From positions 28,302-92,301 of the forward strand of contig JAFZBH010000005.1 in the NCBI GenBank assembly GCA_017561865.1: a DNA stretch of 64,000 nt. Direction: 5' to 3'. Made by a program: the position numbers and the translations under genes. Numbering within the stretch: position 1 is the stretch's first letter; every line of letters begins with the position of its first letter. The notes under the pieces were generated by a model, which was not told the origin of the DNA, did not search any database, and saw only the letters and a program-made list of their open reading frames with translations. The stretch is from Bacteroidales bacterium (GTDB taxonomy: Bacteria; Bacteroidota; Bacteroidia; Bacteroidales; UBA932). Shown piece after piece: positions 33,858 to 60,016 of this stretch.

Positions 33858-35283
33858 GACCCTTCCCGTCCGGGTCGGTGAGTCGCTCGTGATCGGCGCC
33901 GGACATCCCATCGTCGTCCAGACGATGTGCAACACGCATACTTCCGATGTCGAAGCCACCGTAGCCCAGGTCCTGGAGCTTGCCGCGGCGGGGGCGCAGA
34001 TGGTCCGCATCACCGTGCCGGGCCGGCAAGACGTCCCGCACGTGGCGGCCATCCGGGAACGGCTGCACGCAGCGGGCTGCCGGGTGCCGCTGGTGGCGGA
34101 CATCCATTTCTCGTCCGAGACAGCCATCGCGGTGGCCCCTTACGTGGAAAAGGTCCGCATCAATCCCGGCAATTTCCACCCCGACCACGACCAGGCACGC
34201 GCGCAATTCGCCCGCTTCCTGGAGGTCTGCCGCGAACACGGCACCGCCGTGCGCGTGGGGCTCAACCACGGTTCGCTGGGCCGCTACATCACCGACCGCT
34301 ACGGCAACACCCCGCACGCGATGGCGATGGCGGCGATGGAGTGGCTGGAGATGTGCATCAAGGCGGATTTCCTCAACGTGGTGGTCTCGTTGAAGGCGAG
34401 CAACACGGTGGTGATGACCGAGGCCTACCGCGAGCTGGTCCGGCGGATGCAGGAGCGGGGTGTGGTGTTTCCCCTGCACCTCGGCGTGACCGAAGCCGGG
34501 GGCGGCGACAGCGGGCGCATCAAGTCCTGCGTGGGAATCGCGACATTGCTTCAGGAGGGCATCGGAGACACGATCCGCGTCTCTTTAACAGAGCCCCCTG
34601 TCAACGAGATCCCTGTAGCACAATACCTTGCCCGCTACGGCGCCGGCGAACGGAGTCTTCCAGACGGGCGGCCGGAAATTATTTTTCGGACAGGTTTGCC
34701 GAAAAACCAATTTCCGCTCCGCTGTCCGTCGCCGGCGCCTGCTTTGAGCGAAGCAAAGTCCGCATCAGCGGACCGGCCCGGTCCCGGGACTTTGCCAACG
34801 GCAAAGTCGGAAAGGGACTTGAGGGCCGCAAGGGGTTCGGGGGATATGCCCCCGTTTGAGCAGATGCTGGCAGCAGCCAGCATCTGGGGACCGAAGCTAT
34901 TGAAGCGGGAGATCGATGAGATTCCGGCGGAGGCGGGGCTGTCGGAGTACCTGCGGGACGAGATCATGCAGGCGGCCCGGCGCCGTTTCTACAAGCCCGA
35001 GTATATCGCCTGCCCCGGCTGCGGCCGCACGATGTACGACCTCCAGGCCACCTTCGAGGAGGTCCAGCGCCGCACCGCACACCTCAAGGGCCTGGTCATC
35101 GCCGTGATGGGCTGCATCGTCAACGGCCCCGGCGAGATGGCCGACGCCGACTGGGGCTATGTGGGAGAAGGCGGCGGACGCGTCACCATTTACCGCCGCA
35201 GCGAACCCGTCCTGCGGCACATCCCCGATTCCGAAGCCATCAACCGGCTGCTGGAGCTGATCGACAAAGAAAAGCAGGACTAA
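33844..35283 (+). CDS. ispG: 4-hydroxy-3-methylbut-2-en-1-yl diphosphate synthase
   Basis: VQTMCNT, PLVADIHF, RINPGN, HLGVTEAG, GDTIRVSL, CPGCGR, VMGCIVNGPGE. Confidence 0.96.
   Translation: MARIETLPVRVGESLVIGAGHPIVVQTMCNTHTSDVEATVAQVLELAAAGAQMVRITVPGRQDVPHVAAIRERLHAAGCRVPLVADIHFSSETAIAVAPYVEKVRINPGNFHPDHDQARAQFARFLEVCREHGTAVRVGLNHGSLGRYITDRYGNTPHAMAMAAMEWLEMCIKADFLNVVVSLKASNTVVMTEAYRELVRRMQERGVVFPLHLGVTEAGGGDSGRIKSCVGIATLLQEGIGDTIRVSLTEPPVNEIPVAQYLARYGAGERSLPDGRPEIIFRTGLPKNQFPLRCPSPAPALSEAKSASADRPGPGTLPTAKSERDLRAARGSGDMPPFEQMLAAASIWGPKLLKREIDEIPAEAGLSEYLRDEIMQAARRRFYKPEYIACPGCGRTMYDLQATFEEVQRRTAHLKGLVIAVMGCIVNGPGEMADADWGYVGEGGGRVTIYRRSEPVLRHIPDSEAINRLLELIDKEKQD
34639..34857. repeat. Palindrome-rich segment in frame inside ispG
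   Basis: 11-bp IR GGCGCCGGCGA/TCGCCGGCGCC (34639-34739) with an inner stem; GACTTTGCC-aac-GGCAAAGTC (34788-34808); CGGGGG..CCCCCG; codon bias breaks here. Confidence 0.65.
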
Positions 35284-37673
35284 ATATCCTTTTCCTGATA
35301 CGTGAACTGGGTCTGACCGATCTGGAAGCGTGAGCCGTGATACAGGCTGACCGGCTTGTCCACCTTCAGCGGCTTGCCGCCCACCGTCACGCCGTCCTCC
35401 AGCGCCACCAGACGCGGGACGCCCTTCTTCATCGTAATCTCGGCGTGAACCGGCGCCACCGCCCCCTGCAGGTCCCAGGTCAGCTGAAGCGAGCAGTCCA
35501 CGGACTTGCCGATGGAAACGACGGCGCCCGGGTTGGCCCGGAACCACTTGTACAGGGCGATGTCCATCGTCTTCACAGGCCCCTGCACTTGCAGGAAATA
35601 ATGCTCGGACTTGGGCGCGGCACGGGCAATCGACAAGACCATTCCGATCGCATAGATCATATAGCTGAAGAGCAGCAGGACCCGGAAATCGATCCCGATG
35701 TACATATAAAGGTATGACCACAGGTACATCGAGACCAAAGACACGCCCACCGCGACCAGGATGATCGACTTTTTCAGTTTCACGCGGGTGCCGTAAGTCG
35801 CCACGATCGCGATGAGGAAGCTGGACAGCGTCCACGGGATCAGATTGATGATGAATCCCGCCTCTTCGACGTGGAACGCCAGGCCGGCGGCGCTGGTCAC
35901 CAGATAAAGGAACCAGGAACCTGCCGCGGCGATCAGGGCCCGGACGAAGAAGTTGAGATAACTCAGCGGGTGCTTCTTCCGAATGGACAGGAAGGCGATG
36001 CCGAAGGTCAGGAAGAAACCGATCATGAAACCGTAGCTGGGAAGCTGGTTCAGGTGAGCGCTGTTGTTCCCGTCGGAGAAGAGTTCGGCAGGCAAGAGAT
36101 ATTCCAGTATATGCCTGGAGGTGAAATGCGTCCACACCGAGTAGACCACCCAGGCGCAGATGGAAGCGATCACTGCCATCAGCAGCCACTTCATATAGAA
36201 GGTCGCATTGCGCCTGTCGAACAGGTTCTGCCTGTCATAGAAATGTGAACCGGTCTTGCAGTGACGGCCATATTCAGGGCAATGATATTCGTTCTCGTCC
36301 CAGCACGACTTGTGCATCGTGTGTTCGCACTTCACGACCACTTTGTCCCCCTTGACGAACGGCGCCTTGCACAGGTAGCAGGACTCCCCGACCTCGATCC
36401 CCTCGACCACCATCTTGGAACCGGTATAGTCGATGACGTATTTGTGTTCGAACCATCTGTAGCGCAGATACGGGATCAGCAGTTGGCAGACCAGGTAGAT
36501 GGCCAGCAACAGCAGCAGACCGAGAATGATACCCTGCAGGATGATCGCATATAGCCGCACACCGTGGACGATGATCGGCCGGTAGAGCGTCCCCTCGTTG
36601 ATATGCGCCGTGGCGGAAGCGACCAGGTGATTGTCCTTGACGCTGTAGAAGAGGATCCTCAGCTGGTTGTTGTCGCCCCGGTAGATCTTGCCGTCGGGAT
36701 TGACGAAATCGAAACGGTTGGAAGCGATGTCCCGGCTGTATGAGCCCAGCATCGTATTCTCGAGCAGGGTCCAGCTGAAGCTTGGCAGGCTGGCGCCGCC
36801 CGTGCTCTCACACAGGGAAGTCAGCACGTTCGCTGCGTCAGTGTCCTCTCCCCGCTCGGCACCCCTGCCGAAGTTGACATAATAGACGTTCACGATTCCG
36901 TCGTCCAGGGCCTGGGAATGCAACATCTCGTTCGCCATCTCGAAATGGTCGGGATCCAGGGGCTGGTCGTTTTCGTCATACACCTTTCCGTCGGAGAATA
37001 TGACCAGCTTGCGTTGCGTGGCATCATCCCAGGGCTCGCCTCCCCGGGCGACCTCCCGGATCTTCGAAAGGATGGAGCGGTATAGGCGCTTGGAGCCTTC
37101 CGCACTCTTGAAATACTGGTTCAGGACATAATCGGTGGCTACCATAGTCGACGTGACCGACGCTCCTGACATAAAAGAAACGAAGAGATTGTCCTGGTTG
37201 AACACGGTCATCATCTCCTGCACGGCATCCCGCTCCGCATCCACCAGCACCTGCGGCAGCGACAGGTCCACGAGCACGAGGATCTTGACACCCAGTTCCT
37301 TGACCTGGTCACTCTCGGTATTCCAGGCTTTCACCAGCTGCGGCTGCACGCGGCGGGAAGTCCTGACACCGTCGTCATACTCCTCCACCTCGATCCGGAC
37401 GACGGTCGAGTCCGTCAGCGGATAGGGACCGATGTCACTGACCACTCCCGTCCAGACGGAGAAAGTCTTGTAGTCCGGCGAGAAGTCGACTTTGTTGACC
37501 ACCAGTTTATCCTGCCTGCCCGTATCCGCGGTCTTGATGCCCGGCATCCCCGAAGTCTCGAAGAGGCTCGTGGGATCGTCGACCCCCAGCCGGGACAGCA
37601 GCCCCGACTGGCACGCCGTCAGGCAGCACGCAGCCGCCAGGGGCAAGAGGAATCTGTACATCTTCTTTGTCAT
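35280..37673 (-). CDS. Membrane lipoprotein: vWA-like domain, TM, RING-H2/Prok-RING-like zinc finger, about 6 TMs, FHA-like domain (candidate membrane E3 ligase)
   Basis: Lipobox CLTAC; ILVLVDLS and LVIFSDG (vWA); CYLC-x13-CEHTMHKSCW-x6-CP-x5-C; C-terminal SIGKSVDC..VHAEI..LYHGSRFQIG. Confidence 0.75.
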   Translation of the reverse strand: MTKKMYRFLLPLAAACCLTACQSGLLSRLGVDDPTSLFETSGMPGIKTADTGRQDKLVVNKVDFSPDYKTFSVWTGVVSDIGPYPLTDSTVVRIEVEEYDDGVRTSRRVQPQLVKAWNTESDQVKELGVKILVLVDLSLPQVLVDAERDAVQEMMTVFNQDNLFVSFMSGASVTSTMVATDYVLNQYFKSAEGSKRLYRSILSKIREVARGGEPWDDATQRKLVIFSDGKVYDENDQPLDPDHFEMANEMLHSQALDDGIVNVYYVNFGRGAERGEDTDAANVLTSLCESTGGASLPSFSWTLLENTMLGSYSRDIASNRFDFVNPDGKIYRGDNNQLRILFYSVKDNHLVASATAHINEGTLYRPIIVHGVRLYAIILQGIILGLLLLLAIYLVCQLLIPYLRYRWFEHKYVIDYTGSKMVVEGIEVGESCYLCKAPFVKGDKVVVKCEHTMHKSCWDENEYHCPEYGRHCKTGSHFYDRQNLFDRRNATFYMKWLLMAVIASICAWVVYSVWTHFTSRHILEYLLPAELFSDGNNSAHLNQLPSYGFMIGFFLTFGIAFLSIRKKHPLSYLNFFVRALIAAAGSWFLYLVTSAAGLAFHVEEAGFIINLIPWTLSSFLIAIVATYGTRVKLKKSIILVAVGVSLVSMYLWSYLYMYIGIDFRVLLLFSYMIYAIGMVLSIARAAPKSEHYFLQVQGPVKTMDIALYKWFRANPGAVVSIGKSVDCSLQLTWDLQGAVAPVHAEITMKKGVPRLVALEDGVTVGGKPLKVDKPVSLYHGSRFQIGQTQFTYQEKDI

Positions 37674-37688: not shown

Positions 37689-38576
37689 TTATATGGTCGG
37701 ATAGTCATCCTTTCCATTCTGTTTCAGTGCGTCCTTGTATTTCTTCATATTCTGGCGCATCTCCCTGGCCGCCTTGATCTTAGCGTGCACCATATTGACG
37801 AACATCAGCAGGACCGCTACGGCCGCCAGGCCCAGCAGGTAGTCCTTGATCCGCTGGATGAGCGGCTTGTAGGTCATCGCCTGGATGGTCTCCGACTTGT
37901 TCTTCAGGATGGCGTAGGCGTCCTCCAGTTCATCCATATGGCGGGCCGAGACCACGTGAAGTTGCTCGGCTTCCCGGGCTTTCTCGAACTTCTCCTCCAC
38001 GGTGGCGAAGATCAGCTGCTCCTTCATCTTCTGCTTCTCCAGGAGCGGCGCCGTCCTGGGAGTCAACGACATCTCGAACGCCTTCTTGCCCAGGTTGTTG
38101 TATGTGCTGTCCAGGCTCTCCATATAGGTTTTCGCCTCGGAGAAGGCCCGCAGGGCCTGGAGCATCTGCTTGCGCACCTCGAGCGAATCCGCGGCTTCCT
38201 GCCGCATCATCTCGAAGTGTTCCACGCTGTCCATCAGGTCCTCATCCTGGGAGATCTCCCACTGCACGGTCGGATAGTAGTTGTCCCAGCGGACATTGAG
38301 CGAGCGAAGGTTCAGCTCCAGCGAGCGCAGACGGTTGTCGATCATCCGCAGGTAGCCGTCGGTAAGCTGGACGTCGTTCGATACCGGTAGCCGCGCCTTG
38401 CAGGAATCGTAGATCCGGCCCATTCCGTCCAGGAACTGGTTCAGCCGGCCTTGCACCGCCAGCCAGGTGGCCTCGTCGAGCGCAGGCTGGTTCCCCGCCT
38501 GCGCCCGGGCACAGACTCCCCCCTGGAGCATCGAGAGCCCCAGAACCAGGAGATATGTGACGAGCCTCCGGCGCAT
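37689..38576 (-). CDS. Exported helical/coiled-coil protein with C-terminal TM anchor
   Basis: Signal peptide MRRRLVTYLLVLG.., helical body, TM YLLGLAAVAVLLMFVNMV, basic tail ending YPTI. Confidence 0.7.
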   Translation of the reverse strand: MRRRLVTYLLVLGLSMLQGGVCARAQAGNQPALDEATWLAVQGRLNQFLDGMGRIYDSCKARLPVSNDVQLTDGYLRMIDNRLRSLELNLRSLNVRWDNYYPTVQWEISQDEDLMDSVEHFEMMRQEAADSLEVRKQMLQALRAFSEAKTYMESLDSTYNNLGKKAFEMSLTPRTAPLLEKQKMKEQLIFATVEEKFEKAREAEQLHVVSARHMDELEDAYAILKNKSETIQAMTYKPLIQRIKDYLLGLAAVAVLLMFVNMVHAKIKAAREMRQNMKKYKDALKQNGKDDYPTI

Positions 38577-38589: not shown

Positions 38590-39741
38590 TTATTGTCCGC
38601 AAGTCTTCCTGAAATACCGTTCCGCCTGTCGGAACACCCTGACGGCCTGCTGGTCCTCGGCCGTCTTGGGTTTCTGGCGCGTGAGCACATCGTTCACGTC
38701 CTTGATGATGTCCAGGCATTGCATCACCAGGTCCCGGCGTTCCAGGTCGTCCTTGCTCACCAGCCAGCGGGCCACGGCCTTGTCGATCTGACGGGCCTGC
38801 GAGTAGATCATCTTGGTGTCCAGGTCCCGGCCCGCATCCAGAAAGCCCTCCCCCTCGGCGCGCACCTTGACGCTCATCACGCCGATGGAATCCACATACT
38901 GGTTATACTGGTCCGTCAGACGCTGCAGATCCGGGCAGTCCGATGTGAGCTTCCTCACGGGGAACTGCGTCAGCAGCACCCGCCGGGTGTCGCCGAAGAT
39001 CTTAAGCCCCTCTTCGTTGGGCACCGTACCGCCGCCATAGGTCTTCTTGAATGCCGTAAAGGCCCCGCGGATCTCGTCCAGCAAGCCGCGGGCCGCAGCG
39101 ATTTCCTCCTCCTTGCCGAAACAGGGGTTGCGGCGGATCTCGATCTGGTATTTCGTGTTCAGGTCCCGGCCTTCCAGCAGTTCATATCCGTCGGGCTTGT
39201 TCCCTTTCCTTTCCAGCAGATACAGGTCGCGCAGGGTCACGGTGACGGTGTTGCGCTTCTGGAGGATGTCGAAACCCTGCTCGATATAGTCATTGACCAT
39301 CTTGTAATCCATCGGCACGGGCTGCAGGCCTTCGTATTCGATCCAGCGCTTGAACACATAGTTCCGGCGGGACTCCGGGAGCGTCTTTCTCAGCGAACGG
39401 GACAGTTTGAAGCGGCTGCCCGGCTCGGCCTCCGCCAGATACGGCAGGAGGTCCGGATGCAGACGGTGGCACTTGACCACCGACGAATAGCGTGTCGCTT
39501 CGCGGAAGACGAACAGGCTGCGATACGACAGCACGCTGACGGTCAGCGTGTTCTGCTGCTCGTCAAAGATGAACTTCACCATCACGTCCATATCCCGGCT
39601 GTCCTCTCCCAGGGAGATATGGTCCGTATAGGACGCGTCGTTGCTGACGGAAATCGTCTTGACGGTCTGCGCCGGGAGGGCGGCCGTCAGGCAGGATGCC
39701 AGCAGCAGGAGGACCAGTTTCTGTATGATAATCTTCTTCAT
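38590..39741 (-). CDS. Secreted hypothetical protein (beta-rich N-terminus, helical C-terminus)
   Basis: Signal peptide MKKIIIQKLVLLLLASCLTAALPA; tight operon spacing. Confidence 0.75.
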   Translation of the reverse strand: MKKIIIQKLVLLLLASCLTAALPAQTVKTISVSNDASYTDHISLGEDSRDMDVMVKFIFDEQQNTLTVSVLSYRSLFVFREATRYSSVVKCHRLHPDLLPYLAEAEPGSRFKLSRSLRKTLPESRRNYVFKRWIEYEGLQPVPMDYKMVNDYIEQGFDILQKRNTVTVTLRDLYLLERKGNKPDGYELLEGRDLNTKYQIEIRRNPCFGKEEEIAAARGLLDEIRGAFTAFKKTYGGGTVPNEEGLKIFGDTRRVLLTQFPVRKLTSDCPDLQRLTDQYNQYVDSIGVMSVKVRAEGEGFLDAGRDLDTKMIYSQARQIDKAVARWLVSKDDLERRDLVMQCLDIIKDVNDVLTRQKPKTAEDQQAVRVFRQAERYFRKTCGQ

Positions 39742-39746: not shown

Positions 39747-40334
39747 TCAGCCTTGTTCAAAAAAAATCCACTCCCGGGGCTCTCCCTGCCGGATCACCCA
39801 GGCCGCCACCTGCAGGTCCTCGGGATAAGGAGGCTCCGAGACGGCGTGATACAGATCGTATCTGAGATACTGCGCGATCCTGTCCACGCCCCAGGCGAGG
39901 TCCGTATAGGTGTCGCCCATATTCAGGCACACCCGCCCTGCCATCGGTCCGAACCAGCGGATGTTCGGATGCCAGGGATGCGGAAGGGGACGTCCCTGAG
40001 CGTCGGCGGTCAGGAAACGGAACACCGGCGAGCCGTCCACGCAAGGGTAATTGGCCGGCAGCTCGATTTCCATCCGGAAGGCGTCGGCGAACAGCGGCGG
40101 ATTCTCCACGCCGCGCTCCCCCATCCGTTCCACCTGCTCCACGCCGCAGATGCTGCGCAGGCGGTACTCCACCCGGTAACGGACGGGCAGGCCGGCGGCG
40201 TTGCAGGCGGCCACCTGCACGTCGATGTCCGGTCGGGCGCCGAATCTGTCCTCCAGCGTCCGCCATTCGTGGAGCAGGCGGCGGTTCCGCCCGCTCAGGG
40301 TTTCCGGTATGAAGTCCTGACTGCGCATCGTCAT
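39747..40334 (-). CDS. E2 ubiquitin-conjugating enzyme-like (UBC fold)
   Basis: RRLLHEW helix 1, FRMEIELPANYP, PVFRFLT, PWHPNI, GRVCLN (catalytic Cys codon at 39927-39929). Confidence 0.85.
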   Translation of the reverse strand: MTMRSQDFIPETLSGRNRRLLHEWRTLEDRFGARPDIDVQVAACNAAGLPVRYRVEYRLRSICGVEQVERMGERGVENPPLFADAFRMEIELPANYPCVDGSPVFRFLTADAQGRPLPHPWHPNIRWFGPMAGRVCLNMGDTYTDLAWGVDRIAQYLRYDLYHAVSEPPYPEDLQVAAWVIRQGEPREWIFFEQG

Positions 40335-40337: not shown

Positions 40338-40655
40338 TTAACCCGGGAAGGGATCCGGAACGAGGAACAGCGTGTCCCCGTTGTGTACGTTATAATCCGC
40401 AAGCGTCTGGTCCGCTTTCCCGATGCGGGGACGCAGGACCCGCACTTCGTGCACGGCAGGGTCCTCCACCCCGAAGAAGTAATCCATCGGGGCCCCCGTC
40501 TCGTCGATGGACGGGAAGTCGAAGATCAGCCGGCCGTCGCTGCCGATCGCGTGGCGCAGGTTGGTCATCAGCTGGCTGAGGGGCGCCTCGGGATTCACGA
40601 CCTTGAAGCGGACCTTCTTGTTCTTGTAAACGATATCAAGGAAATAGTCTTCCAT
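40338..40655 (-). CDS. Ubiquitin-like (beta-grasp) protein with free C-terminal Gly (alternative TTG start at 40670)
   Basis: QTLADYNVHNGDTLFLVPDPFPG* parallels ubiquitin [23 protein letters not shown]; 3 nt from the E2 gene. Confidence 0.8.
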   Translation of the reverse strand: MEDYFLDIVYKNKKVRFKVVNPEAPLSQLMTNLRHAIGSDGRLIFDFPSIDETGAPMDYFFGVEDPAVHEVRVLRPRIGKADQTLADYNVHNGDTLFLVPDPFPG

Positions 40656-42401: not shown

Positions 42402-42850
42402 ACGTTGATGACAGATAAATACTGGTAATCGGCGCCGGTCTGCCGGATCACGCCCTTGACGGTCACGTAGATCTTGCGCTCCTCGCGGATATAGGTCATC
42501 GACACGGACACCTCTTCCAAACGTTTCTCATAGGATTCGATCGTCTGCTTAAGCTCCGCCGCAAAGGTGTTGAGATTGTTGGACGAACCGGATATCTTTT
42601 TGTCATAAAGACCCTCCCGACCTTCGAAATAGCCCTTCAGGCCGGAAGAATTGTAGACGACCCCTTCGTTCTCGTTGAAGATCTCGAAACGCAGGTTGTT
42701 GAAGACGAAGCCATATTGCGGATCGGCCGCGCAGCTGTAGCAGGGCGTGGCCATCAGCAGCGCCAGGGCGCTGTCGATCGCCGCCTTCGGGTCGTCCGTA
42801 CGGCCGAGGGCGCCCTTGTCAATCCGCAGTGGTATCGAAATGCTTCCCAT
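42392..42850 (-). CDS. tssE: T6SS baseplate TssE (gp25-like)
   Basis: AIDSALALLMATP...DPQYG...IESYEKRL gp25 signature. Confidence 0.8.
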   Translation of the reverse strand: MGSISIPLRIDKGALGRTDDPKAAIDSALALLMATPCYSCAADPQYGFVFNNLRFEIFNENEGVVYNSSGLKGYFEGREGLYDKKISGSSNNLNTFAAELKQTIESYEKRLEEVSVSMTYIREERKIYVTVKGVIRQTGADYQYLSVINVWK

Positions 42851-44004: not shown

Positions 44005-44787
44005 TTATATTTCCGTGTTGTAATCCAGAGTCAGTCCCTCTTTCAGCTCCGGTCCGGAGCCGTGCTGCCGGATGACGATTTCCAGGCGCACTTCCATCGG
44101 GATGAACCATTCGCCGAGGAAGGCCGTCAGCGGCTGCAGGTCGTTGTATAAAGCCTGGACCTCCCCGGCGGAGAGGCCGGGAATGAGCAGCTCGTAACGC
44201 GCGACCGGCAGCCAGCTGCGGGTGCTGTCCGTCCCGCTGTAGCGCCGCTGCGAGAACTGCACTTCGCAATGGAAAACGGCCGAGAGCAGATTGCGTACCA
44301 GGCCGAAATCCCCCCGCCGCTGCCGGATGCAGGGCAGCAGGACGGCGAATTCCCGCACGTACGGATTCTGCTCCGCCGCCAGGTCGAAGCCGAAGTAAGT
44401 CTTCAGGATATACTCCAACTTGCCGTCCAGCAGCTCCGACACCTCCCGCTCGGCTTTCAGTTGCCGGCGGAAGCGGAAGGTATCGATGGGCAGGAACGCC
44501 TCAGAGAGGACCTTGATCCGCTCTTCAAGCGCCTTGTGCTTATCCTGTCTGTCACCTTTCTTCAGTTCTTCCTCCGGAGACAGGAGCCCCTGCGGGAGCA
44601 GGGCCAGGAAGCCGTCCCGGGACAGGGACACGCTCTCCTCTTCGGGCTCCAGCGACAGGATGTCCCGGTTGTAGTTGCGGTAGAACGTCCCGTCGTGACG
44701 GGCGGTCCAGCGCTCCTCCAATTCCGGGTAGAGATAGTTCAAGAGCATCTCCGCCCCTATTTCCGGTATTTGCGTCAGCTCGTTCAT
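44005..44787 (-). CDS. tssG: T6SS baseplate TssG-like
   Basis: GTFYRNYNRDI, LSRDGFLALLPQGL, FLPIDT, LP..RRGD, WFIP. Confidence 0.78.
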   Translation of the reverse strand: MNELTQIPEIGAEMLLNYLYPELEERWTARHDGTFYRNYNRDILSLEPEEESVSLSRDGFLALLPQGLLSPEEELKKGDRQDKHKALEERIKVLSEAFLPIDTFRFRRQLKAEREVSELLDGKLEYILKTYFGFDLAAEQNPYVREFAVLLPCIRQRRGDFGLVRNLLSAVFHCEVQFSQRRYSGTDSTRSWLPVARYELLIPGLSAGEVQALYNDLQPLTAFLGEWFIPMEVRLEIVIRQHGSGPELKEGLTLDYNTEI

Positions 44788-50161: not shown

Positions 50162-50169
50162 AGCTCATA

Positions 50170-53100: not shown

Positions 53101-54051
53101 AATCTCCGAGTTGTACGGAAACTCTCCCACCTCATATCTCGGGAAGGCGTCATCAGGGTAATCATCAGTTCCTTTCTTTACAGGATCCGTAAGAATCTTG
53201 TTTTTTTCCAGGGCATAGGTTGTGGAACCGTCTACAGTCCGCTCTTGCTTGACAGCATCGCGCGCATAGTCCTTAACTGTGATAGGCTTCGAAGAATACC
53301 GTTGGAAAATAACACGGCTGGCATTGGTAATGGATGTTTTCTTTTCGGTATCAGGAAGGCCGAAACAAAGCTTTCCGTCCTCGAAATAAAACACTTCTCC
53401 GCAACGGTTGGCCACCCGGGACAGGAAATCGTAGAAAGTCTCGTTATACTGCACCAGATAGGGCTGGACCAACTCATAGCGCCTCGTCTTCTTAAATATT
53501 GTCACCTCGTAACTCAAATTATGGAGCACTCTTGTTTCCATCTCAATGGAGCCGAAGTGATATAACGAGTTCTTGACGATATCCGCCACAAGACGTCTTC
53601 CCAAATGAGCCTGGCTATATTTATTGAGAGTCATCTTCTTGTCCGGGCTGAAGATGTCCAGTTTCACATAGATATCATATTTGTAATAATAAGTTTCCCT
53701 TTTTCCGCCCCTGATTTTGACAAACTCAGCACGGCGCCCTTTTTCGTATTGGGGGGATATCTCGTGAACATAATAGTTTTTTGCCACCACGGTCTGGTTG
53801 ACGGAGAGGGAGACGGACTTATTCAGAAAAAAGTCCATCAAGGCATCCACGTCAGGAGCCGACGGTTCTGTTTTTTCCTCTGTTGACATCAGGATTTCCG
53901 CCTCAATATGCCCCGGCTGATATACCTGACGTTGGAAAGACACGCCATAAAGAGAAACATCCAACTTGTAGTCGCCGATGGTCAGGTCAGTCTTGGCGTC
54001 GTTCGAAATAGTCTTCCCACCTAAGGTTAAACTATATTTCAGGAGATTCAT
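50170..54051 (-). CDS. tssI: VgrG/TssI spike protein with about 400-aa C-terminal extension
   Basis: YLVQYNETFYDFLSRVANRCGE.FYFEDGKL, GRVRVRFPW, TPWIRM..P.A..GGG.YF.PEKGDEVMVDFENGN.EHPYVVG, SKNGHTI. Confidence 0.92.
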   Translation of the reverse strand: MNLLKYSLTLGGKTISNDAKTDLTIGDYKLDVSLYGVSFQRQVYQPGHIEAEILMSTEEKTEPSAPDVDALMDFFLNKSVSLSVNQTVVAKNYYVHEISPQYEKGRRAEFVKIRGGKRETYYYKYDIYVKLDIFSPDKKMTLNKYSQAHLGRRLVADIVKNSLYHFGSIEMETRVLHNLSYEVTIFKKTRRYELVQPYLVQYNETFYDFLSRVANRCGEVFYFEDGKLCFGLPDTEKKTSITNASRVIFQRYSSKPITVKDYARDAVKQERTVDGSTTYALEKNKILTDPVKKGTDDYPDDAFPRYEVGEFPYNSEISPEDQYMILYKNKFARDDLNSLWVGDKIGKTLEVVAMILESTSLLEVMTNFATSSIHSAIQAHTKTGETNKKGNDSIGDADYKVLFTNASEFKDHWVTLKYHQDIRSREEEQMRKTVCVDMGQDYADVKLGDRISLPNDSKHTYVVVRIEMTSGVKWNRSYEELSGNNKMEEEGQTQRIYAIPMYEKEEGGTTTSVFYPPLLPGQPFRQSGPQPAFIYESGDWKNQGRVRVRFPWQPKYDADAKQTALNNAQKELEKYATFDTSGKPVKKKEAKQADYDAALTEYNRCKTELAVANEAAREDATPWIRMSTPMATSGGGMYFKPEKGDEVMVDFENGNIEHPYVVGTLYSKNVTVPDGSRIIQSKNGHTIKMSDPNDGSLLLAGMYPGLKLLKNYGVEMHFMDDKVNEVLGGIEMSDKYGFYKIKMSSHDRCVSIASPFGDVKMSAFSGIKINAPNGDIKIVGKNVDITAYNKLKVTSGKNIDLGLDQYRLGYLAPFTKGDKVGEAAGSIISSFYADFFDLSFIRSILEVFIRPVDGTLSIKSNRYLMMEAGKGKAAAIPSNYNEFEGGGGQEGKSLVFAVPYIRETLDKYIQEYCKLFNNVNYAIRAFFRWLSSRNWPSEVETPTDLTTLLTSLFALDEACLAKGKDFDAAFDTFAGDETKFKIKTGTEDGRAASIKGSVKGLMRAVLALKKFHLGYDTMFADLTGKGVLPPFGSRFENFFRFGTVRYHHKAIGFTYDEILKMTKPEVPAPNVGDDHIDVLGNATLVGGQPVGPAPDTPTPAAEDGGSENGFYHAYYLKVQKFIDNASPDAAVFTPDVPSLLKPNVFNSWKKIVCRRLICALIEFCRGNNNPFDSFKVTTNYPAGTTLYKPETPFSDHDWASYISGISFEKKKQDSNWGWDFLSGLAEGAIFEPLSKLALFEISPWKADAKGEILFSDKENVSFRFADNGSVEKTIAPGRIEADAYLVREALKSF

Positions 54052-54055
54052 CTGT

Positions 54056-54535
54056 TCAGTCTTTTGTTATCGTCAATTCTACCAAATGCTCCGTTCCCAC
54101 ATAAGAAAGATGGCTGAGCAACAGCCGGGCGCGAAGCAGCGTCTGCTCAGGAGAGGAGCCCGGACTGGGATCGCCGTGGATTTCTTCCATATCCACGATA
54201 TAACCCGTAGCGACCAGTGCGTCATCATATGTGGAAAGATACTGTTTGTCATTAAAACCGGCATTGAAGAGAAAACTGTAGCGGAAGGTCTCCGTACGCA
54301 GTATCCGGTCATAAAACACTTTCTCTTTTTCTCCAGCGGCGACTCTGATGGTAAAGTCCAGATAGGAAGGGACTGTAGGGCCATAAGGCGCGCCCTCGTC
54401 ATTCCGCTGGCGTCGGCACCCGTAACTGAAATGCTGCACGGTAAAGCAACCGGTGCGCTGCACTTTGATTCCCTTTTCCGTTATATCCCCTGCCAAAAGC
54501 AAGGCCTTCAATTGATTTGAAATCGGTCCGGACAT
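54056..54535 (-). CDS. tssD: Divergent TssD (Hcp)-like protein
   Basis: FTVQHFSYGCRRQRNDEGAPYG, LDFTI; directly upstream of vgrG. Confidence 0.55.
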   Translation of the reverse strand: MSGPISNQLKALLLAGDITEKGIKVQRTGCFTVQHFSYGCRRQRNDEGAPYGPTVPSYLDFTIRVAAGEKEKVFYDRILRTETFRYSFLFNAGFNDKQYLSTYDDALVATGYIVDMEEIHGDPSPGSSPEQTLLRARLLLSHLSYVGTEHLVELTITKD

Positions 54536-54951
54536 TACGCTTGTGATTTAAAAACAATGTCATCTATGATGATCTCCGCAGGAACCGCGCGAAGTTTCAG
54601 CGTCCGGAGTATACTCTTATCGATGTGATATTCTTCTTCGATGGCGAAACAGACGCAATCTTCGAAAAGGATCATTTTCCATTGCCCCTGCCGGCCAAAA
54701 GCCACAGAAGGCATCTCAATCAGGACACGGCCACTCATTGTGGTGCCCTTCTCATACCATTCGTAAAGATTCAAGTCGCTCTTGCCCGGGGCAACCACCG
54801 TCAGTTCCATCTGGTCGCACTGGGCACAACCTTCCGGGCGTGCCTCATTATGGGAACGCAGGATATGACATTTGAAATCCACCACCGTGTATTCCTTGTC
54901 ATACCGAAGGGCTCCGTTGTTTCCGAATTGGAGTTTTGCTATTAATGACAT
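54535..54951 (-). CDS. tssD: TssD (Hcp)-like tube protein
   Basis: AKL..., YTVVDF, LYEW, SGRV.I, I.FEDCVC...EEY. Confidence 0.7.
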   Translation of the reverse strand: MSLIAKLQFGNNGALRYDKEYTVVDFKCHILRSHNEARPEGCAQCDQMELTVVAPGKSDLNLYEWYEKGTTMSGRVLIEMPSVAFGRQGQWKMILFEDCVCFAIEEEYHIDKSILRTLKLRAVPAEIIIDDIVFKSQA

Positions 54952-54964
54952 CGGATAAAATTAC

Positions 54965-55000
54965 GGGCAAGTCAGCCGGCAAGGCCGGCTGACTTTACCC
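54965..55000 (-). terminator. Intrinsic terminator or stabilising hairpin after the second major tssD
   Basis: AAGTCAGCCGGC-aag-GCCGGCTGACTT perfect 12-bp stem followed on the minus strand by an A/T-rich tract. Confidence 0.75.
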
Positions 55001-55016
55001 AAATTAGTTAAATGAT

Positions 55017-55415
55017 TTATTTCCAAGGGTTCTCGAAGGAGACGGGGCCGTTCTCCAGCTTCTGGCAAACGATCTCGACCTCCTCGAAGTGCTCCTGGCC
55101 GTCCTCCCACTTTTCCTTGTAGTGGACGCAGTAGCAGCCGGTGCCATTGAGCTCCTTCATCGTGGAGCCATCCACGGTGTTGTAGTAGGTCACGGTGAAG
55201 TCACGCGGGTCGTTCGGGGACAGCATCCACTGGAGAAGCTGGTTGTTGCCGTCGTTCATCGCCTTGACGCGGACGGTGACTCTGCCGCCGCGGGGAATAC
55301 CGGAAATCTGACCTTCGCGGTCCGTAGCCTGGTTGAACTTGTAATCGACCATCATCACTTCACGCACCTCGAAGTCCTTGACGGCCAACTGTACGGGGGT
55401 TACATTTTCTGCCAT
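55017..55415 (-). CDS. tssD: TssD (Hcp) tube protein
   Basis: REVMMVDYKFNQATDREGQISGIPRGG, LLQWM, YCVHYKE, FENPW. Confidence 0.9.
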   Translation of the reverse strand: MAENVTPVQLAVKDFEVREVMMVDYKFNQATDREGQISGIPRGGRVTVRVKAMNDGNNQLLQWMLSPNDPRDFTVTYYNTVDGSTMKELNGTGCYCVHYKEKWEDGQEHFEEVEIVCQKLENGPVSFENPWK

Positions 55416-55460
55416 AATATGGTTCCTCCTAATTATTTAATTCTTACTTGTCTAACCAGA

Positions 55461-55853
55461 TTAAGCCCATTCATTCTCAAAGACAACGGAGCCAAACTCG
55501 ATTTTCTTGCAGGTGATGGTGATGAGCTCGAAATGGCCCATCTTGTCCTCCCACTTCTCTTCGAATTCGACGCAATAGCCGTTGGTGAACTTAATTTCTT
55601 TCATCGCCTTGCCGGTCTTCGTCTCAAGGAACTGGATGGAGCCGTTCTTCGGGAGATTCCGCTCGCACATCCAGGCCAACAGGTCGGGTGTGCCGTCGTT
55701 CAGTGCTTTCACGCGGACGATGATCTTGCCGCCGCGGGGGATGCCGGCCATCTGTCCTTCGACGTCGGTGGCCTGGTCGAACTCATAGGTTACCATCAGG
55801 ACTTCGCGGTCCTTGTAACCGTCGATCTTCATACAAACAGGGGTCTTTGCCAT
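55461..55853 (-). CDS. tssD: TssD (Hcp) tube protein
   Basis: REVLMVTYEFDQATDVEGQMAGIPRGG, LLAWM, KFTNGYCVEFEE, FENEW. Confidence 0.92.
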   Translation of the reverse strand: MAKTPVCMKIDGYKDREVLMVTYEFDQATDVEGQMAGIPRGGKIIVRVKALNDGTPDLLAWMCERNLPKNGSIQFLETKTGKAMKEIKFTNGYCVEFEEKWEDKMGHFELITITCKKIEFGSVVFENEWA

Positions 55854-55889
55854 AATTTATTAATTATTAATGGTTGATAAAACTTTCAA

Positions 55890-57254
55890 TTACGCGCCCG
55901 TCATCGTTGCTTCCTTGCTCTTCTTGTCGGCCGCCACCTTGATGACGAAGTTCTTGGCCGCATAGAAGGGTGTCAGGGTGATGTCGCAGGTGATCTGCTT
56001 GGTGACGGGATCCTGGCGGGGCTCGCCGATCTCGTAGTTCTGGAACAGGTTGCCGTAGCCCTTGTACATATTGAGGAACTCCTGAATCTTGGCCTTGAGG
56101 TTCTTCGGGGAGTTGTACGGGTCCCAGTTCTCAAGGGCGACTTCGTGGACGAAGTTCATCAGCACTTTCTTCACCCAGTCGAACACGCGCACGATCGGAT
56201 ACTCCTTCATCGCGTCGAGGTCGCCGTTGTAGAGCGTGGTGTTGTTGAACGCCATCACGCGGCCTTCGCTGTAGACCATCGGGATCACCTGGTTGTCCAT
56301 CAGGGCGGCGATCTCGGACTTCAGCAGGTCGCTCTTCACGCCCTTCACGCCATCCAGGGTGCCGTACTTCTTGCCGCCGGCGCCCTGCGCCATATTGGCC
56401 GTCTCGTCATAAAGCTTGCCGCAGAGGGCCGCGGACGGGGCGATGAAGAAGGCCTTGGCGTCCTCCTCGTCGGCGGACATCTTCTCGGCCTCGCGGCCGA
56501 CGATCCAGTTGGCGGTCATCACCACGTTCATCAGTTCCTGGTCGCTGTCGCGGTAGCCTTCGGTATTGGCCTGCAGGTCCTCGAAGGAATACTCGTCGGC
56601 GTGGTCGGTGATCAGCAGGACCTTGTACTTGAAGGCCATCTTGGCCCAGCGCAGCAGGTCCACTTTGTCATTGAACACGGCACCGGGCACGCACACGAGG
56701 CTGTAGGCGTCCTTCAGGCTCAGGCGGTCGAATCCGTTGCGCAGAATCCCCTCGACCTCCTCATAGAAGCCGGAGTCGGCGTCGGCGATGTCTTCCTTGA
56801 CGACGTTGATGAGGCGAAGGTTCTGGACCTTGTCGGTGCCGCAGGTCTTGAAGAACGAATCGAGCTCGCGGTAGCTGCGCTCAAGGTTCTGGGTGGCATA
56901 GAGGGCGTCCGTGATGCCCTGCTCGAGCACCTTGGTGTACTTCTCCTCCTTCTGCTTGCAAGCGTCGGCGAAAGCGGTGGCGCTGTCCAGGTCGCCCTGG
57001 TCGAGCAGTTCGAGCCAGCCCTTGATGTCCCGGGCCAGGGTCTCGCGCTTGTCGGCGAAACGCTTGTCGGTCAGGAAGACGTTCTTCTGGGCCTTGCGGG
57101 CGGGGTTCATATTGTCGGCATCCGGCATGAAGCCGCGGATGGCGTTGAAGCCGCCGAACGAAGCCAGCAACTCCTTATTGACTTCTTTTTCTTTCAGCCC
57201 TTCCGCTGCGGCCTGTCCGGCCACGGGGGCTTTCTTCAATTCAGTATCAGCCAT
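55890..57254 (-). CDS. tssC: T6SS-iii contractile sheath large subunit TssC (DUF5458-like)
   Basis: FGGF, NMNPARKA.K..FL, LERSYR.L..FF, DRLSL, NWIVGR, PSAAL.G, YPIVRVFDW, TPFY.AKNF. Confidence 0.9.
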   Translation of the reverse strand: MADTELKKAPVAGQAAAEGLKEKEVNKELLASFGGFNAIRGFMPDADNMNPARKAQKNVFLTDKRFADKRETLARDIKGWLELLDQGDLDSATAFADACKQKEEKYTKVLEQGITDALYATQNLERSYRELDSFFKTCGTDKVQNLRLINVVKEDIADADSGFYEEVEGILRNGFDRLSLKDAYSLVCVPGAVFNDKVDLLRWAKMAFKYKVLLITDHADEYSFEDLQANTEGYRDSDQELMNVVMTANWIVGREAEKMSADEEDAKAFFIAPSAALCGKLYDETANMAQGAGGKKYGTLDGVKGVKSDLLKSEIAALMDNQVIPMVYSEGRVMAFNNTTLYNGDLDAMKEYPIVRVFDWVKKVLMNFVHEVALENWDPYNSPKNLKAKIQEFLNMYKGYGNLFQNYEIGEPRQDPVTKQITCDITLTPFYAAKNFVIKVAADKKSKEATMTGA

Positions 57255-57280: not shown

Positions 57281-57745
57281 CTATTTTGCTCCCTCCAGTT
57301 CGTCGAGCATAGCTTGAAGCATCGCCTTCATCTCCTCGCGGGAACCGGCATCCTTCAGGATGTCGCGCAGCTTGCGGTTCTGCTCGATGCTCTTGCGGAT
57401 CTTGGCGTTGGTGTCGATCTCTTCCTTGACGCCGGACAGGAACGGGCTGTTCTGGACAAGTTTACCCTTGCCTCCCTGGGCCTCGAAGTCACGGAGTTCG
57501 CCGAACTTGAGCGTTTCCTCCACGGCGCCGCCTTCGGCGTCGGTGAAGGTCACGTCCACCTTCGGTTTGAAATGGGCGAAGGCGTCGCCGATGTTCTGGA
57601 TGTCCTCCACGAACTCGGGGTTGCCGGGGTCCACGTCGGTGGTGTACTGGTCGATCATCAGGGTTTTGTTCTGGTCGACCAGACTGACTTTCGCGCTGGA
57701 CTCCTCATCGGGAGCCATCGAGATAAAGTTCTCTTTCATTGCCAT
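57281..57745 (-). CDS. tssB: T6SS-iii contractile sheath small subunit TssB
   Basis: NKTL.I.Q.T, F.HFKP.VDV.F....G..VEETL.F..L.DF, L...S.FL, LDELE. Confidence 0.88.
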   Translation of the reverse strand: MAMKENFISMAPDEESSAKVSLVDQNKTLMIDQYTTDVDPGNPEFVEDIQNIGDAFAHFKPKVDVTFTDAEGGAVEETLKFGELRDFEAQGGKGKLVQNSPFLSGVKEEIDTNAKIRKSIEQNRKLRDILKDAGSREEMKAMLQAMLDELEGAK

Positions 57746-57781: not shown

Positions 57782-60016
57782 TTATTGTTCAGGGTTGATG
57801 ACGAACTCGGGATTGCCTTCGGCGTCCAGCCGGACCTCGATCCGGTCGCCGGGCTTGACCTTGCCGGCGATCAGCATCTTCGAGATCGGGTGCCGCAGCT
57901 CCTTGCGTATGATGCCGAGCACCGGACGGGCGCCGTACTGCTGGTTGTAGCCGCGCAGCGCGATGGTCTGCCGGGCCTCGGGCGTCAGGGTCAGGGTAAT
58001 GCTCTGCTCGGCGAGCAGCTTGTGCAGACCCTTCATATGGATGTCGAAGATCGCGGTGACGCTCTGGTCGGTGATCGGCGAGAAGGGCACGATCTCCGTC
58101 AGACGGGCCAGGAACTCAGGGCGGAAGTAGCCCTGCATGATGTCCATCAGCTCGTTGTTCTGCGGGACGACACCGCTGTTGAACTTGTCCACGATGGCCT
58201 TGGCGCCGATGTTCGAAGTGAAGAGGATGAGCGCGTTGGAGAAATCGCCCACGCGGCCCAGACGGTCGTGCAACTTGCCTTCGTCGAGAATCTGCAGGAA
58301 GAGGTCGAAGACCGACTTATGCGCCTTCTCGATCTCGTCGAAGAGCACCACGCTATAGGGCTTCTGGCGGATCTTGTTCACCAGTAGACCGCCCTCCTCA
58401 TAGCCGACGTATCCCGGAGGCGCGCCGTAGAGAAGCGCCACGGAATGCTCCTCCTTGAACTCCGACATATCGAAACGCAGGAGCGAACTTTCGTCGCCGA
58501 AGAGGAACTCCGCCAATGCCTTTGAGAGCTCCGTCTTGCCGGTACCGGTGGGACCGAGGAAGAAGAACGAACCCATCGGCTGGCCCTTCTTGTTCAGGCC
58601 GGAACGGGCCTCGAAGACGGCGTCCAGCACCTTCTTTACGGCGTGGTCCTGGCCCACGACGCGCTTCTTGAGGATCTCCTCGCCGCCCAGCAGGCGCTCG
58701 CGCTCGCCGCTTTGGACCTTGCCCAGGGGAATGCCCGTCTGGGCGGCCACGACGGCGCTCAGGTCCGCAGGGCTCAGCTCGGTATGGAAACGCTCCTTGT
58801 CGCCCAGGTCGTTCTCGACCTTGACGTGCGACATCGTGCGGTCGATCAGGTCGATGGCCGAGGCCGGCAGCGACTTCTCCGTCAGGTAGCGCTTCGCCAG
58901 ACGGATGGCTTCCTTCATCTCCGGCTCGCCGAGGGTCAGACCATGATACTCTTCATAAGCGGGCATGATGCCCTTGAGGATCTCCAGGGTCTGGTCCACG
59001 CCGGGCTCATCGATGGAGATGCGCTCCAGGTTCGAAACCATCTCCTTGTCGGTCTCGATATTCTTCGTGAAGCCGTCGATGCTCGAGGTGGCCAGGAGCT
59101 GCAGGCGGCCTTTGCTGAGTTCATTTTTCAGGATGGTGGACGTGCCGTAGAGGGCGCCCTGCTTGTCGAACAGTTTGTCCACGCTCTCGATGATCAGCAC
59201 CGCATTCGGCAGGGCCTCCACCTCATCGATCACGCCCTTGAAGCGGTCTTCGACCTCGCCCTTGTACTGGGCGTCGCTCCCCAGGGAGGCGGTGTCAAGT
59301 TCATAGGCCACGGCCCCGCTGAGGAAGCCGGGCACCTTGTCGGCGGCCAGCTCCCGCATAAAACCGTTGACCAGCGAGGTCTTTCCCACGCCGGACTCGC
59401 CCGTAATCAGGAGGTTGGCCTTCATCTTGCGGCCGAGGATCTCGTAGATGACCCCCATCTCCTTTTCGAAGCCGATGACGTTGTCCAGGTTGCCGGCACG
59501 GGCCACCGCCGTCTTGTCGGTGCAGTATTTGGCCAGGTTGCCCTTGCCGGAAGCGGGCGTATTTTTCTTCAATTCCGCTCCGCCCATATAAGGCGCTTCT
59601 ACATTGGCTCCGCCGCCCATCTTCGCGCTGATGTCGGAAGGGGTCAGGGGAAGGGTCTTGAGCTGGTCGAAGGAGAAGCCCACGCCCGGGGTCACCAGGG
59701 CGGTGAGCACGCACACGTCCGTACACTCGTCGAGGCCGAACTTGACCATGTAGTTCTCCGCTTCGTCCAGCACGGCCTGCGACTCCGGACTCCAGTCCAG
59801 ATCACGAAGCGGGCGGACGGCGCGGGGGGCGAGCTGCATCTGGACGTCAGCCCAGTCCTGCAGGTAGTAATAATCCTTGTCCAGTTCAGTCTCCAGGAAA
59901 TGGACAAGCCCGATTTCCTTGTGAAGGACGGCCTTGAAGAGATGCGCCGGATAGATGGCGTCACTGCAATACTCCTCCGCGAAGGAATTGGCGATGGGTT
60001 TTAATTTAGCGTTCAT
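57782..60016 (-). CDS. tssH: ClpV/TssH AAA+ sheath-disassembly ATPase
   Basis: Clp N-domain, GESGVGKT, GQDHAV, GPTGTGKT, DMSEF.E.H, VLFDEIEKAH, RPEFL.R, GARP. Confidence 0.9.
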   Translation of the reverse strand: MNAKLKPIANSFAEEYCSDAIYPAHLFKAVLHKEIGLVHFLETELDKDYYYLQDWADVQMQLAPRAVRPLRDLDWSPESQAVLDEAENYMVKFGLDECTDVCVLTALVTPGVGFSFDQLKTLPLTPSDISAKMGGGANVEAPYMGGAELKKNTPASGKGNLAKYCTDKTAVARAGNLDNVIGFEKEMGVIYEILGRKMKANLLITGESGVGKTSLVNGFMRELAADKVPGFLSGAVAYELDTASLGSDAQYKGEVEDRFKGVIDEVEALPNAVLIIESVDKLFDKQGALYGTSTILKNELSKGRLQLLATSSIDGFTKNIETDKEMVSNLERISIDEPGVDQTLEILKGIMPAYEEYHGLTLGEPEMKEAIRLAKRYLTEKSLPASAIDLIDRTMSHVKVENDLGDKERFHTELSPADLSAVVAAQTGIPLGKVQSGERERLLGGEEILKKRVVGQDHAVKKVLDAVFEARSGLNKKGQPMGSFFFLGPTGTGKTELSKALAEFLFGDESSLLRFDMSEFKEEHSVALLYGAPPGYVGYEEGGLLVNKIRQKPYSVVLFDEIEKAHKSVFDLFLQILDEGKLHDRLGRVGDFSNALILFTSNIGAKAIVDKFNSGVVPQNNELMDIMQGYFRPEFLARLTEIVPFSPITDQSVTAIFDIHMKGLHKLLAEQSITLTLTPEARQTIALRGYNQQYGARPVLGIIRKELRHPISKMLIAGKVKPGDRIEVRLDAEGNPEFVINPEQ

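Follow-up and report, generated by a model that had tools for sequence, protein, structure and literature searches.

Ubiquitin-type conjugation genes lie among the baseplate genes of a conserved, apparently undescribed type VI secretion variant in Bacteroidales

We describe here a gene cluster of a Bacteroidales bacterium (UBA932; GCA_017561865.1, contig JAFZBH010000005.1, positions 28,302-92,301) in which genes for a contractile type VI secretion system (T6SS) are interleaved with genes for a ubiquitin-like protein (Ubl), an E1, an E2, and a membrane RING protein; the whole 64,000-nucleotide (nt) stretch analysed is called the window, and all further coordinates refer to it. An open reading frame (ORF) check of the window recovers 22 ORFs, all on the minus strand and tightly packed between 35280 and 60016, in the order (5' to 3' of the coding strand) tssH-tssB-tssC-tssD (four genes)-vgrG-597-amino-acid protein-PAAR-PEGA-RRF-like-E1-tssG-tssK-tssE-tssF-Ubl-E2-exported protein-transmembrane (TM) protein-vWA/RING/TM/FHA protein, just as an earlier note made from the letters alone had listed them. 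After correction of three starts by comparison with relatives (tssF at 42386, Ubl at 40655, TM protein at 38576), neighbouring genes are separated by between -11 and 65 nt. At 44784-44787 the stop of E1 and the start of tssG overlap, exactly where the note had it, and the overlaps and the gene order, which recurs in relatives, confirm its broader claim that the ubiquitin-type genes are interleaved with baseplate genes. Its placement of the Ubl gene holds only in part: the gene does end 3 nt before the E2 ATG, but its start is not an abutting TTG and instead lies at 40655, 15 nt past the tssF stop. Judged by its genes, the locus is apparently a conserved, undescribed T6SS variant with an intact-looking Ubl-E1-E2-RING cascade, encoded by the following block:

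40338-40655, minus strand: Ubl of 105 amino acids, C-terminus DPFPG (family alignment; weak YukD match)
39747-40334, minus strand: E2 with HPN motif and Cys136 (UQ_con 2e-4, below cut-off)
44784-45914, minus strand: E1 with adenylation domain, zinc ligands, crossover-loop Cys173, and predicted ubiquitin-fold C-terminal domain (ThiF 2e-50; E1 model)
38590-39741, minus strand: exported protein of 383 amino acids with conserved cysteines (no family match)
37689-38576, minus strand: single-TM protein with signal peptide, helical periplasmic part, TM helix, and Lys-rich cytoplasmic tail ending YPTI (alignments)
35280-37673, minus strand: lipoprotein-type protein of 797 amino acids with vWA, TM, RING-H2-like, six-TM, and degenerate FHA parts, the candidate membrane E3 (alignments and model)

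To place this arrangement in context, we surveyed 86 loci picked by E2 similarity and including near-copies, 14 from a GTDB scan and 72 from a metagenome scan (labels beginning with G, C, L, and P denote genomes, contigs, loci, and protein rows of this comparison set). Every GTDB locus (14/14) has tssF-Ubl-E2 plus baseplate genes, and tssF stands directly before Ubl-E2 in 73 of the 74 scorable loci, the exception, on a short contig of marine origin, having a distant E2. Downstream come the exported and RING genes in 61/61 loci, tssG adjoins tssK in 54/54, and E1 adjoins tssG in 47 of 51 by script, or 49 after inspection of two mis-scored loci; in the remaining two, E1 has been relocated behind the RING gene. 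The Ubl-type linkage is also kept in the rearranged G211 and in a sister T6SS clade (clade B, introduced below). Given the same layout in all GTDB loci and all but one scorable locus, a chance arrangement is rejected, and the conserved association of Ubl, E1, and E2 with tss genes, on which the earlier note had staked its interpretation, stands. One named isolate, Prevotella sp. ne3005 (L004), carries the locus. No second copy of the locus genes was found in the source genome (G000), a 56% complete assembly.

The Ubl and E2 folds are assigned from profiles, which for the Ubl are joined by an ESM feature match of 0.86 to ubiquitin/YukD clusters that we treat as a lead, and both assignments are thus predictions. 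The Ubl family comprises 627 clusters at 90% identity, and its terminal glycine is invariant in 62/62 distinct sequences. There is no K or R in the window Ubl's tail. For the E2, H122, P123, N124, and C136 are invariant (73/73), and a profile of 44 rows has UBE2K as its best match in the PDB (E = 1.3e-4), the closest solved relatives being eukaryotic UBE2K and Ubc13; a profile of 13 rows found no PDB match. Ratios of nonsynonymous to synonymous substitution rates (dN/dS) are below 0.25 for Ubl, E1, E2, and RING in the eight pairs computed, by which we reject pseudogene decay of the block, and the Ubl has the lowest ratio of the block in seven of the eight (0.00-0.10).

The E1, of 376 amino acids, has a single ThiF domain followed by a C-terminal domain. 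C154, C157, C173, C247, and H250 are invariant in 33/33 rows, with C154/C157/C247/H250 as the zinc ligands. Its structural model has a mean predicted local distance difference test score (pLDDT) of 90, with low confidence in the loop of residues 171-187 that includes Cys173. The model matches UBA3 (2nvu; Z 26.3, root-mean-square deviation [rmsd] 8.1 Å, 297 residues aligned) and UBA1 (9mc4; Z 24.4, rmsd 6.4 Å), which among the best 50 matches listed are the only ones aligning over residues 1-376; the alignments with MoeB, the top match to the E1 core, and with 8tyz end near residues 251-254. Because only UBA3 and UBA1 align through the C-terminal domain, the model points, at these high rmsd values, to a ubiquitin-fold (UFD-like) E2-binding domain. 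A PDB sequence search with the C-terminal domain alone gave no match.

The E1 comparison bears on a very unlikely alternative, in which the Ubl never enters an isopeptide bond but serves either as a non-covalent structural subunit, in the manner of EsaB/YukD, or as a sulfur carrier. The Ubl's weak YukD match and the rank of MoeB agree with it, and secretion systems do use beta-grasp proteins non-covalently, EsaB/YukD and EccD of the type VII secretion system being, like our Ubl, beta-grasp proteins at a secretion machine (PMC11217815, in its accessible text). However, the same text has EsaB-type proteins without a terminal Gly-Gly motif, against the invariant glycine here, and those proteins lack a conjugation terminus and enzymes. 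An HPN/Cys E2, a RING, a JAB, and a UFD-like domain would have no place in sulfur transfer, and the source genome has a separate ThiF-like gene on contig C20. A thiamine or molybdopterin role of the ThiF/MoeB sulfur-carrier kind is rejected, given that an E2 and a RING belong to the block.

The candidate E3 belongs to a family of 481 representatives at 50% identity and is the locus's only polytopic inner-membrane protein. Its RING residues C449, H451, H454, C457, W458, C465, and C472 are invariant in 59/59 sequences, and C432 and C435 in a 45-row alignment, so that eight zinc ligands are kept, the last two standing six residues apart and not two; the best PDB match of the RING region is RNF24 (E = 0.005). 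The lipobox cysteine is kept in 58/59. In structure searches with the model of the 797-residue protein (pLDDT 83), the vWA domain is well matched (Z 16.6, rmsd 2.8 Å, 168 residues aligned) and the FHA fold is recovered at a TM-score of about 0.8; the model suggests that RING and FHA both lie on the cytoplasmic side of the membrane. Phosphothreonine-binding FHA domains carry G-R, S-x-x-H, and N-G, a pattern that neither the window protein (G-K, A-P-V-H, D-G) nor its clade B relatives (G-M/A, A-K-E-H) match. A phospho-independent-looking FHA and post-translational control of assembly are points of likeness to phosphorylation-controlled T6SSs (PMC11217815, same accessible text), although Ubl conjugation, and not threonine phosphorylation, is what we propose here. 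The single-TM protein is fused in frame with the RING protein in L027, P0127, and P0165, and the two therefore probably work together. The 'complete cascade' of the earlier note accordingly survives as far as Ubl, E1, E2, and RING all have intact catalytic or zinc residues; a JAB deconjugase, which the sister clade possesses, is lacking in the window's clade.

This type of module is already known as a prediction, and its embedding in a T6SS is the new part. Burroughs 2011 reportedly predicted prokaryotic operons of Ubl, E1, E2, RING, and JAB genes, and Candidatus Caldiarchaeum subterraneum is said to have an archaeal Ub-E1-E2-RING cascade, likewise with eukaryote-like enzymes, whose RING is soluble and which is linked to the proteasome, whereas the present locus is bacterial, secretion-linked, and by prediction membrane-bound. 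Tri-ligase Ubl operons with a prokaryotic RING have been predicted in print (PMC7159879 in its accessible part, citing Burroughs 2011), and like them our locus has a terminal-Gly Ubl, E1, E2, and RING in one operon, a weak PF14446 match, and, in sister clades, a JAB. Unlike the tri-ligase and FtsH-ternary operons as that part of the source presents them, it is embedded in a T6SS, carries its RING within a vWA/7-TM/FHA lipoprotein, lacks EAD1, MoxR, and FtsH, and has no JAB in the window's locus or clade. A literature search, with supplementary operon tables outside its scope, found no paper on a T6SS with E1/E2/RING genes.

Among characterised systems, Bil (BilABCD) resembles the locus in its separate Ubl, E1, and E2 with catalytic Cys, and in its eukaryote-like E2. 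In the accessible text of PMC10557695, Bil has no E3, a JAB, and an E1 (BilD) with tandem inactive and active domains and no UFD; the locus, by contrast, has a single-domain E1 with a predicted UFD, a membrane RING, no JAB, and a T6SS context, and on E1 architecture, RING, and JAB we reject Bil membership. Bub forms Tyr/Ser oxyesters (E1 Tyr, E2 Ser) and has fusions with DUF6527 (PMC11601596, in part); Bub membership is rejected too, with E1 Cys173 and E2 Cys136 invariant and no DUF6527 match among the 22 ORFs. Bub and CBASS Cap2 have E1/E2-type chemistry in common with the locus, but neither has a RING or T6SS genes, and Cap2 is an E2-E1 fusion acting on the cyclase, in place of separate genes. 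That a Bil-like anti-phage system sits in the T6SS operon and tags phage tail proteins appears highly improbable to us. The characterised bacterial E1/E2/Ubl systems are all defensive or proposed to be so, as far as the accessible texts go (PMC10557695, PMC11601596), and the spread of the locus is patchy (2 of 90 same-genus genomes; 2 of 401 genomes across the order with a single Ubl query). Yet PADLOC matches solely the shared ThiF domain and leaves Ubl, E2, and RING unmatched, the Ubl is the slowest-evolving gene of the block and has not diversified, and the flanks hold no defence islands but housekeeping genes, the neighbours by Pfam being an ispG/gcpE gene and a glycosidase gene.

The machine into which the block is set comprises the remaining 16 ORFs:

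57782-60016, minus strand: TssH/ClpV AAA+ ATPase of 744 amino acids (AAA_2 4e-59; TIGR03345 below cut-off)
57281-57745, minus strand: TssB, small sheath subunit (family profile matches canonical TssB, 1e-21 to 3e-25)
55890-57254, minus strand: TssC, large sheath subunit, divergent clade A (PF17541 6e-99; TssC tree)
55461-55853, minus strand: TssD/Hcp 1 (PF17642 1e-28)
55017-55415, minus strand: TssD/Hcp 2 (PF17642 3e-22)
54535-54951, minus strand: TssD/Hcp-like 3 (PF17642 7e-6)
54056-54535, minus strand: probable divergent TssD-like 4 (weak hhalign match over the full length of TssD1, E 0.022 over 101 columns; no Pfam match)
50170-54051, minus strand: VgrG of 1293 amino acids (PF04717, OB fold, 1e-15)
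48368-50161, minus strand: 597-amino-acid protein, possibly a gp5/DUF2345-like beta-helical spike extension (ESM Atlas leads 0.81-0.84)
47974-48363, minus strand: PAAR-like protein (DUF4280; PF14107 3e-32)
46623-47963, minus strand: exported PEGA-domain protein (PF08308 2e-16)
45904-46617, minus strand: conserved RRF-like protein of 237 amino acids (PF01765 1e-3, below cut-off)
44005-44787, minus strand: TssG (hhalign 98.3% to canonical TssG)
42858-43997, minus strand: TssK, its acidic tail ending in P-x-[ILM] (98.4% in hhalign against canonical TssK)
42392-42850, minus strand: TssE (PF04965, gp25, 4e-8)
40671-42386, minus strand: TssF (profile matches canonical TssF, 1e-14 to 1e-26)

Pfam matches in the window are weak or below cut-off for TssK, Ubl, E2, RING, and the RRF-like protein, and nothing useful was obtained for tssB, tssD4, tssG, and tssF; the identities of tssB, tssE, tssF, tssG, and tssK are backed by profiles built from relatives and compared with five canonical T6SS-iii loci (E 1e-7 to 1e-26 for TssF, TssG, and TssK). 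Pfam, profiles, and hhalign together bear out the gene identities of the earlier note, for the fourth tssD weakly. By these matches, the T6SS core (sheath, tube, spike, ClpV, and baseplate TssEFGK) is homologous to that of Bacteroidota T6SS-iii: TssB, C, D, E, F, G, H, K, VgrG, and PAAR have counterparts, several Hcp genes are present, and both systems have a vWA lipoprotein and a polytopic inner-membrane protein. What sets the locus apart are its separate TssC/TssF clade, the Ubl/E1/E2/RING genes, and the failure to find the TssN, TssO, and TssR families here.

We examined the last point in a panel of 38 genomes, 10 + 24 found by TssC and 4 reached through E2 loci. The TssC tree has four well-supported groups (canonical, A, B, and C), and the TssF tree has the same unrooted shape. 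TssN is present in 16 of the 18 canonical genomes, among which E2 and RING occur solely in G761, a genome that also has a clade A locus (0/17 purely canonical genomes). In clade A, the window's own, E2 and RING are found in 11/11 genomes, five of them found by TssC alone, and TssN solely in G761. Clade B (7 genomes plus a second locus in G492) has E2 and RING in 6, the seventh contig ending before the block, and TssN above cut-off in 0 of 7. TssN, E2, and RING are all without match in the three genomes of clade C. Among Ubl-type genomes, TssN (PF17555) was found in 0/5 with a positive control of 5/5, and it is missing from the 99% complete G211 as well as from the source genome; TssO and TssR (PF17561, PF17643) gave 0/5 in a search that had no positive control. 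By the tssN test, the locus appears to be a T6SS variant outside canonical T6SS-iii, and together with E1 architecture, RING, and T6SS context this upholds the distinction that the earlier note had drawn from Bil and CBASS and from the GA1-3 loci. According to the accessible text of PMC10781749, the T6SS-iii membrane complex is TssNQOPR, of which TssO, TssP, TssQ, and TssR diverge fast; tssN adjoins tssK/tssG in canonical loci, and the cytoplasmic beta-grasp domain of TssN recruits TssK and the baseplate. Profiles, though thin, detect no similarity of the Ubl, RING, TM, exported, or PEGA proteins to TssN/O/P/Q/R. Two T6SS types can share a genome, as in G492 (C53, C15; clades A and B) and G761 (C23, C35; clade A and canonical).

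We give an even chance to the interpretation that the membrane RING E3 attaches the Ubl to some part of the machine exposed to the cytoplasm and that this conjugation governs firing or the docking of the baseplate, and we favour such a membrane/baseplate role over cargo loading or TssH targeting because tssN is missing from its usual place and the block holds the locus's sole polytopic inner-membrane protein. In this scheme, the Ubl would be made already ending in glycine, and met by an E1, E2, and RING that by sequence keep their catalytic or zinc residues. By established E1/E2 chemistry, the E1 would with high probability adenylate the Ubl, hold it as a thioester on Cys173, and transfer it through its UBA3-like domain to Cys136 of the E2. 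The cytoplasmic RING of the 7-TM lipoprotein would then quite probably activate E2~Ubl, and we think it slightly better than an even bet that there is an alternative membrane complex and sensor whose periplasmic side is made up of the vWA domain, the exported protein, and the single-TM protein. The weakest step concerns the acceptor, which might be a subunit of the baseplate or else the single-TM protein, in its Lys-rich tail; the attached beta-grasp tag might conditionally supply the docking surface for TssK, as the fused beta-grasp domain of TssN does in B. fragilis. The wider proposition, that Bacteroidales of gut and rumen have a T6SS subtype of a new kind, with a ubiquitin ligase as its membrane anchor that builds a TssN-like docking site on a signal, is offered tentatively, as falling somewhat short of an even chance.

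Two C-terminal tails, preceded by acidic or aromatic residues, offer a clue to the target:

42858-42870, minus strand: P-x-[ILM] tail motif at the end of tssK (alignment of relatives)
37689-37700, minus strand: P-x-[ILM] tail motif at the end of the single-TM gene (alignment of relatives)

In clade A, TssK ends P-x-[ILM] in 61/61 sequences and the TM protein in 68/68. The same ending occurs in 32 of 2874 background ORFs and, within the window, in none of the remaining ORFs of at least 100 amino acids. These tails are reminiscent of Ubl-binding motifs, and in the proposed scheme they might be the recognition signal. The charges are also suggestive: in clade A the TssK tail is acidic and the first Ubl hairpin basic, while clade B shows the reverse, an acidic Ubl and five basic TssK tails, which end in Ile. 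A complex prediction for the Ubl with TssK residues 335-379 gave a score of 0.06 (mark 0.32), which speaks neither for nor against binding.

The other clades supply both support for and rivals to a role in docking or firing. The clade B order is PAAR-[effector/immunity]-Ubl-E2-exported-TM-JAB-RING-E1-tssG-K-E-F, often followed by kinases and PP2C, and its Ubl ends VPIAG. The membrane JAB of clade B and of G211 has an intact metal motif, and since the Ubl already ends in glycine and needs no trimming, it would act in deconjugation, which fits reversible conjugation. In clade C (G716, G743, G701), genes for Ubl, E1, E2, and RING are missing from the 35-40 kb read around tssC, and searches of the whole genomes match neither E2 nor RING; its tss surroundings (L176-L181; G716:C6, G743:C7, G701:C33) hold at least 5 Ser/Thr kinases together with FHA, FHA-trypsin, PP2C, and WG-repeat proteins, and it is possibly another undescribed, phosphorylation-controlled T6SS subtype. 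In the source genome, itself 56% complete, four queries found no kinase or FHA partner; there is one PP2C, on C23.

It is unlikely, in our estimate, that the block is instead a trans-envelope signalling module of a portable kind, transcribed together with the T6SS, whose substrate is a regulator or some other protein outside the structure, and that its membrane proteins anchor the machine without conjugation. Such a module would suit the clades just described, C having kinase/FHA/PP2C genes without the block and B having both, as well as a periplasmic vWA domain joined to a cytoplasmic RING, which befits a sensor, and the related blocks beside srfBC and large secreted proteins described below. 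Against it stand the interleaving and overlap of the block with baseplate genes, the tail motif common to TssK and a block protein, and the finding of no conserved regulator gene in the clade A loci read. We rate as quite unlikely the view that the Ubl is a loading tag on tube, spike, or cargo proteins, or a label that directs TssH to spent sheath. The clade B Ubl gene does come after PAAR/effector/immunity genes (a Tle1-like effector and a DUF2931 immunity gene in one locus), the window has four Hcp-like genes and a VgrG with a variable extension (7-16% identity with five orthologs over residues 901-1200 of the hypervariable 900-1200 region vs 32-49% over 601-800), and Bil modifies phage tail fibres (PMC11601603, in its accessible part). 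In clade A, however, the Ubl gene follows tssF, distant from vgrG, the candidate E3 is a polytopic membrane protein, and canonical T6SS-iii accomplishes cargo loading and sheath recycling without the block. No effector-immunity pair was identified within the window locus.

Several results weigh against control of docking or firing by conjugation. The main counter-result is clade C: having neither TssN nor the block, it indicates that a tssN-less T6SS can do without the Ubl genes. Conversely, related blocks occur without tss genes and so can serve other ends. G015:C685 (L095:1548-20000, L120) has an E1-Ubl-E2-JAB-vWA/RING/FHA block adjoining srfB, srfC, and an S8 peptidase; the stretch read contains no tss genes, the genome has no TssC, and the Ubl extends past the glycine. 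Three of 400 class genomes, from other Bacteroidia orders (G947, G1120, G1202; L199-L204), carry an E1-(Ubl)-E2-(JAB)-membrane block, again with no tss genes in the stretch read, that adjoins secreted proteins of 1212-5014 amino acids; the RING pattern is unmatched there. The block would thus be a portable envelope module that is a fixed part of these T6SS lineages. Reversal is unexplained in clade A, where 8/8 genomes tested other than G211 had no JAB match (controls 2/2), and hhalign finds no sequence homology between the Ubl and the TssN beta-grasp domain. TssK tails are basic in clade C (ending RKKHH) and in canonical loci too, and because basic tails are the rule in canonical TssK, the charge match is merely suggestive. 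The window E2, RING, and Ubl family scores fall below Pfam cut-offs, and correlations of distances across the block lend weak support, because linked genes co-diverge regardless.

If conjugation onto the machine is real, bacteria would have their first working E1-E2-RING E3 cascade, and bacterial ubiquitination would for the first time be seen to run one of the cell's own nanomachines instead of fighting phage; no E3 is part of the characterised bacterial pathways (CBASS Cap2, Bil, Bub), which act in defence or have no established role, and the RING operons are predictions without a known target. The locus offers easy read-outs (Hcp secretion, sheath assembly, killing) and few candidate targets, so that two questions become testable: do RING proteins of bacteria have E3 ligase activity, and what anchors a T6SS in the absence of TssJLM or TssNOPQR? 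The combination of a eukaryote-like E2, a UFD-bearing E1, and a membrane RING is also of interest for how the ubiquitin system arose.

Some smaller observations concern the relatives. The G015 block is followed downstream by another JAB and by a protein in which two Ubls are fused in tandem. The clade B locus of G827 (L183-L185, C1:2860001-2915000) lies inside a conjugative element (TraG, relaxase) on a single contig of 5.08 Mb, and its tssF is followed by kinases, PP2C, and a LysM glucosaminidase. In L189, L190, and L193, also of clade B, Hcp-like domains are found in ORFs of 632-1192 amino acids, possibly Hcp-effector fusions. The position of the RRF-like gene varies among clade A loci, L127 has an extra RRF-like copy and a partial gene of the 597-amino-acid type upstream of tssH, and the PEGA gene is missing from several orthologous loci.

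Within the window, the 597-amino-acid protein has no Pfam or PHROG match, VgrG being the sole match in a PHROGs search of the window proteins. Upstream of tssH, a sigma-70 scan found no promoter and the full -33/-7 pattern had no match, but one element matches the Bacteroidetes -7 promoter box:

60063-60070, minus strand: TAAATTTG, about 47 nt before tssH, putative -7 box (no -33 box match)

Beyond it, at 60145-63915, lies an ORF of 1256 amino acids that combines an exo-beta-glucosaminidase-type Ig domain region with an alpha-L-fucosidase with F5/8 domains. Across the vgrG and tssD genes (window positions 48000-56000), G+C content is 48-50%, compared with about 60% elsewhere in the locus, which suggests exchange of the spike region.

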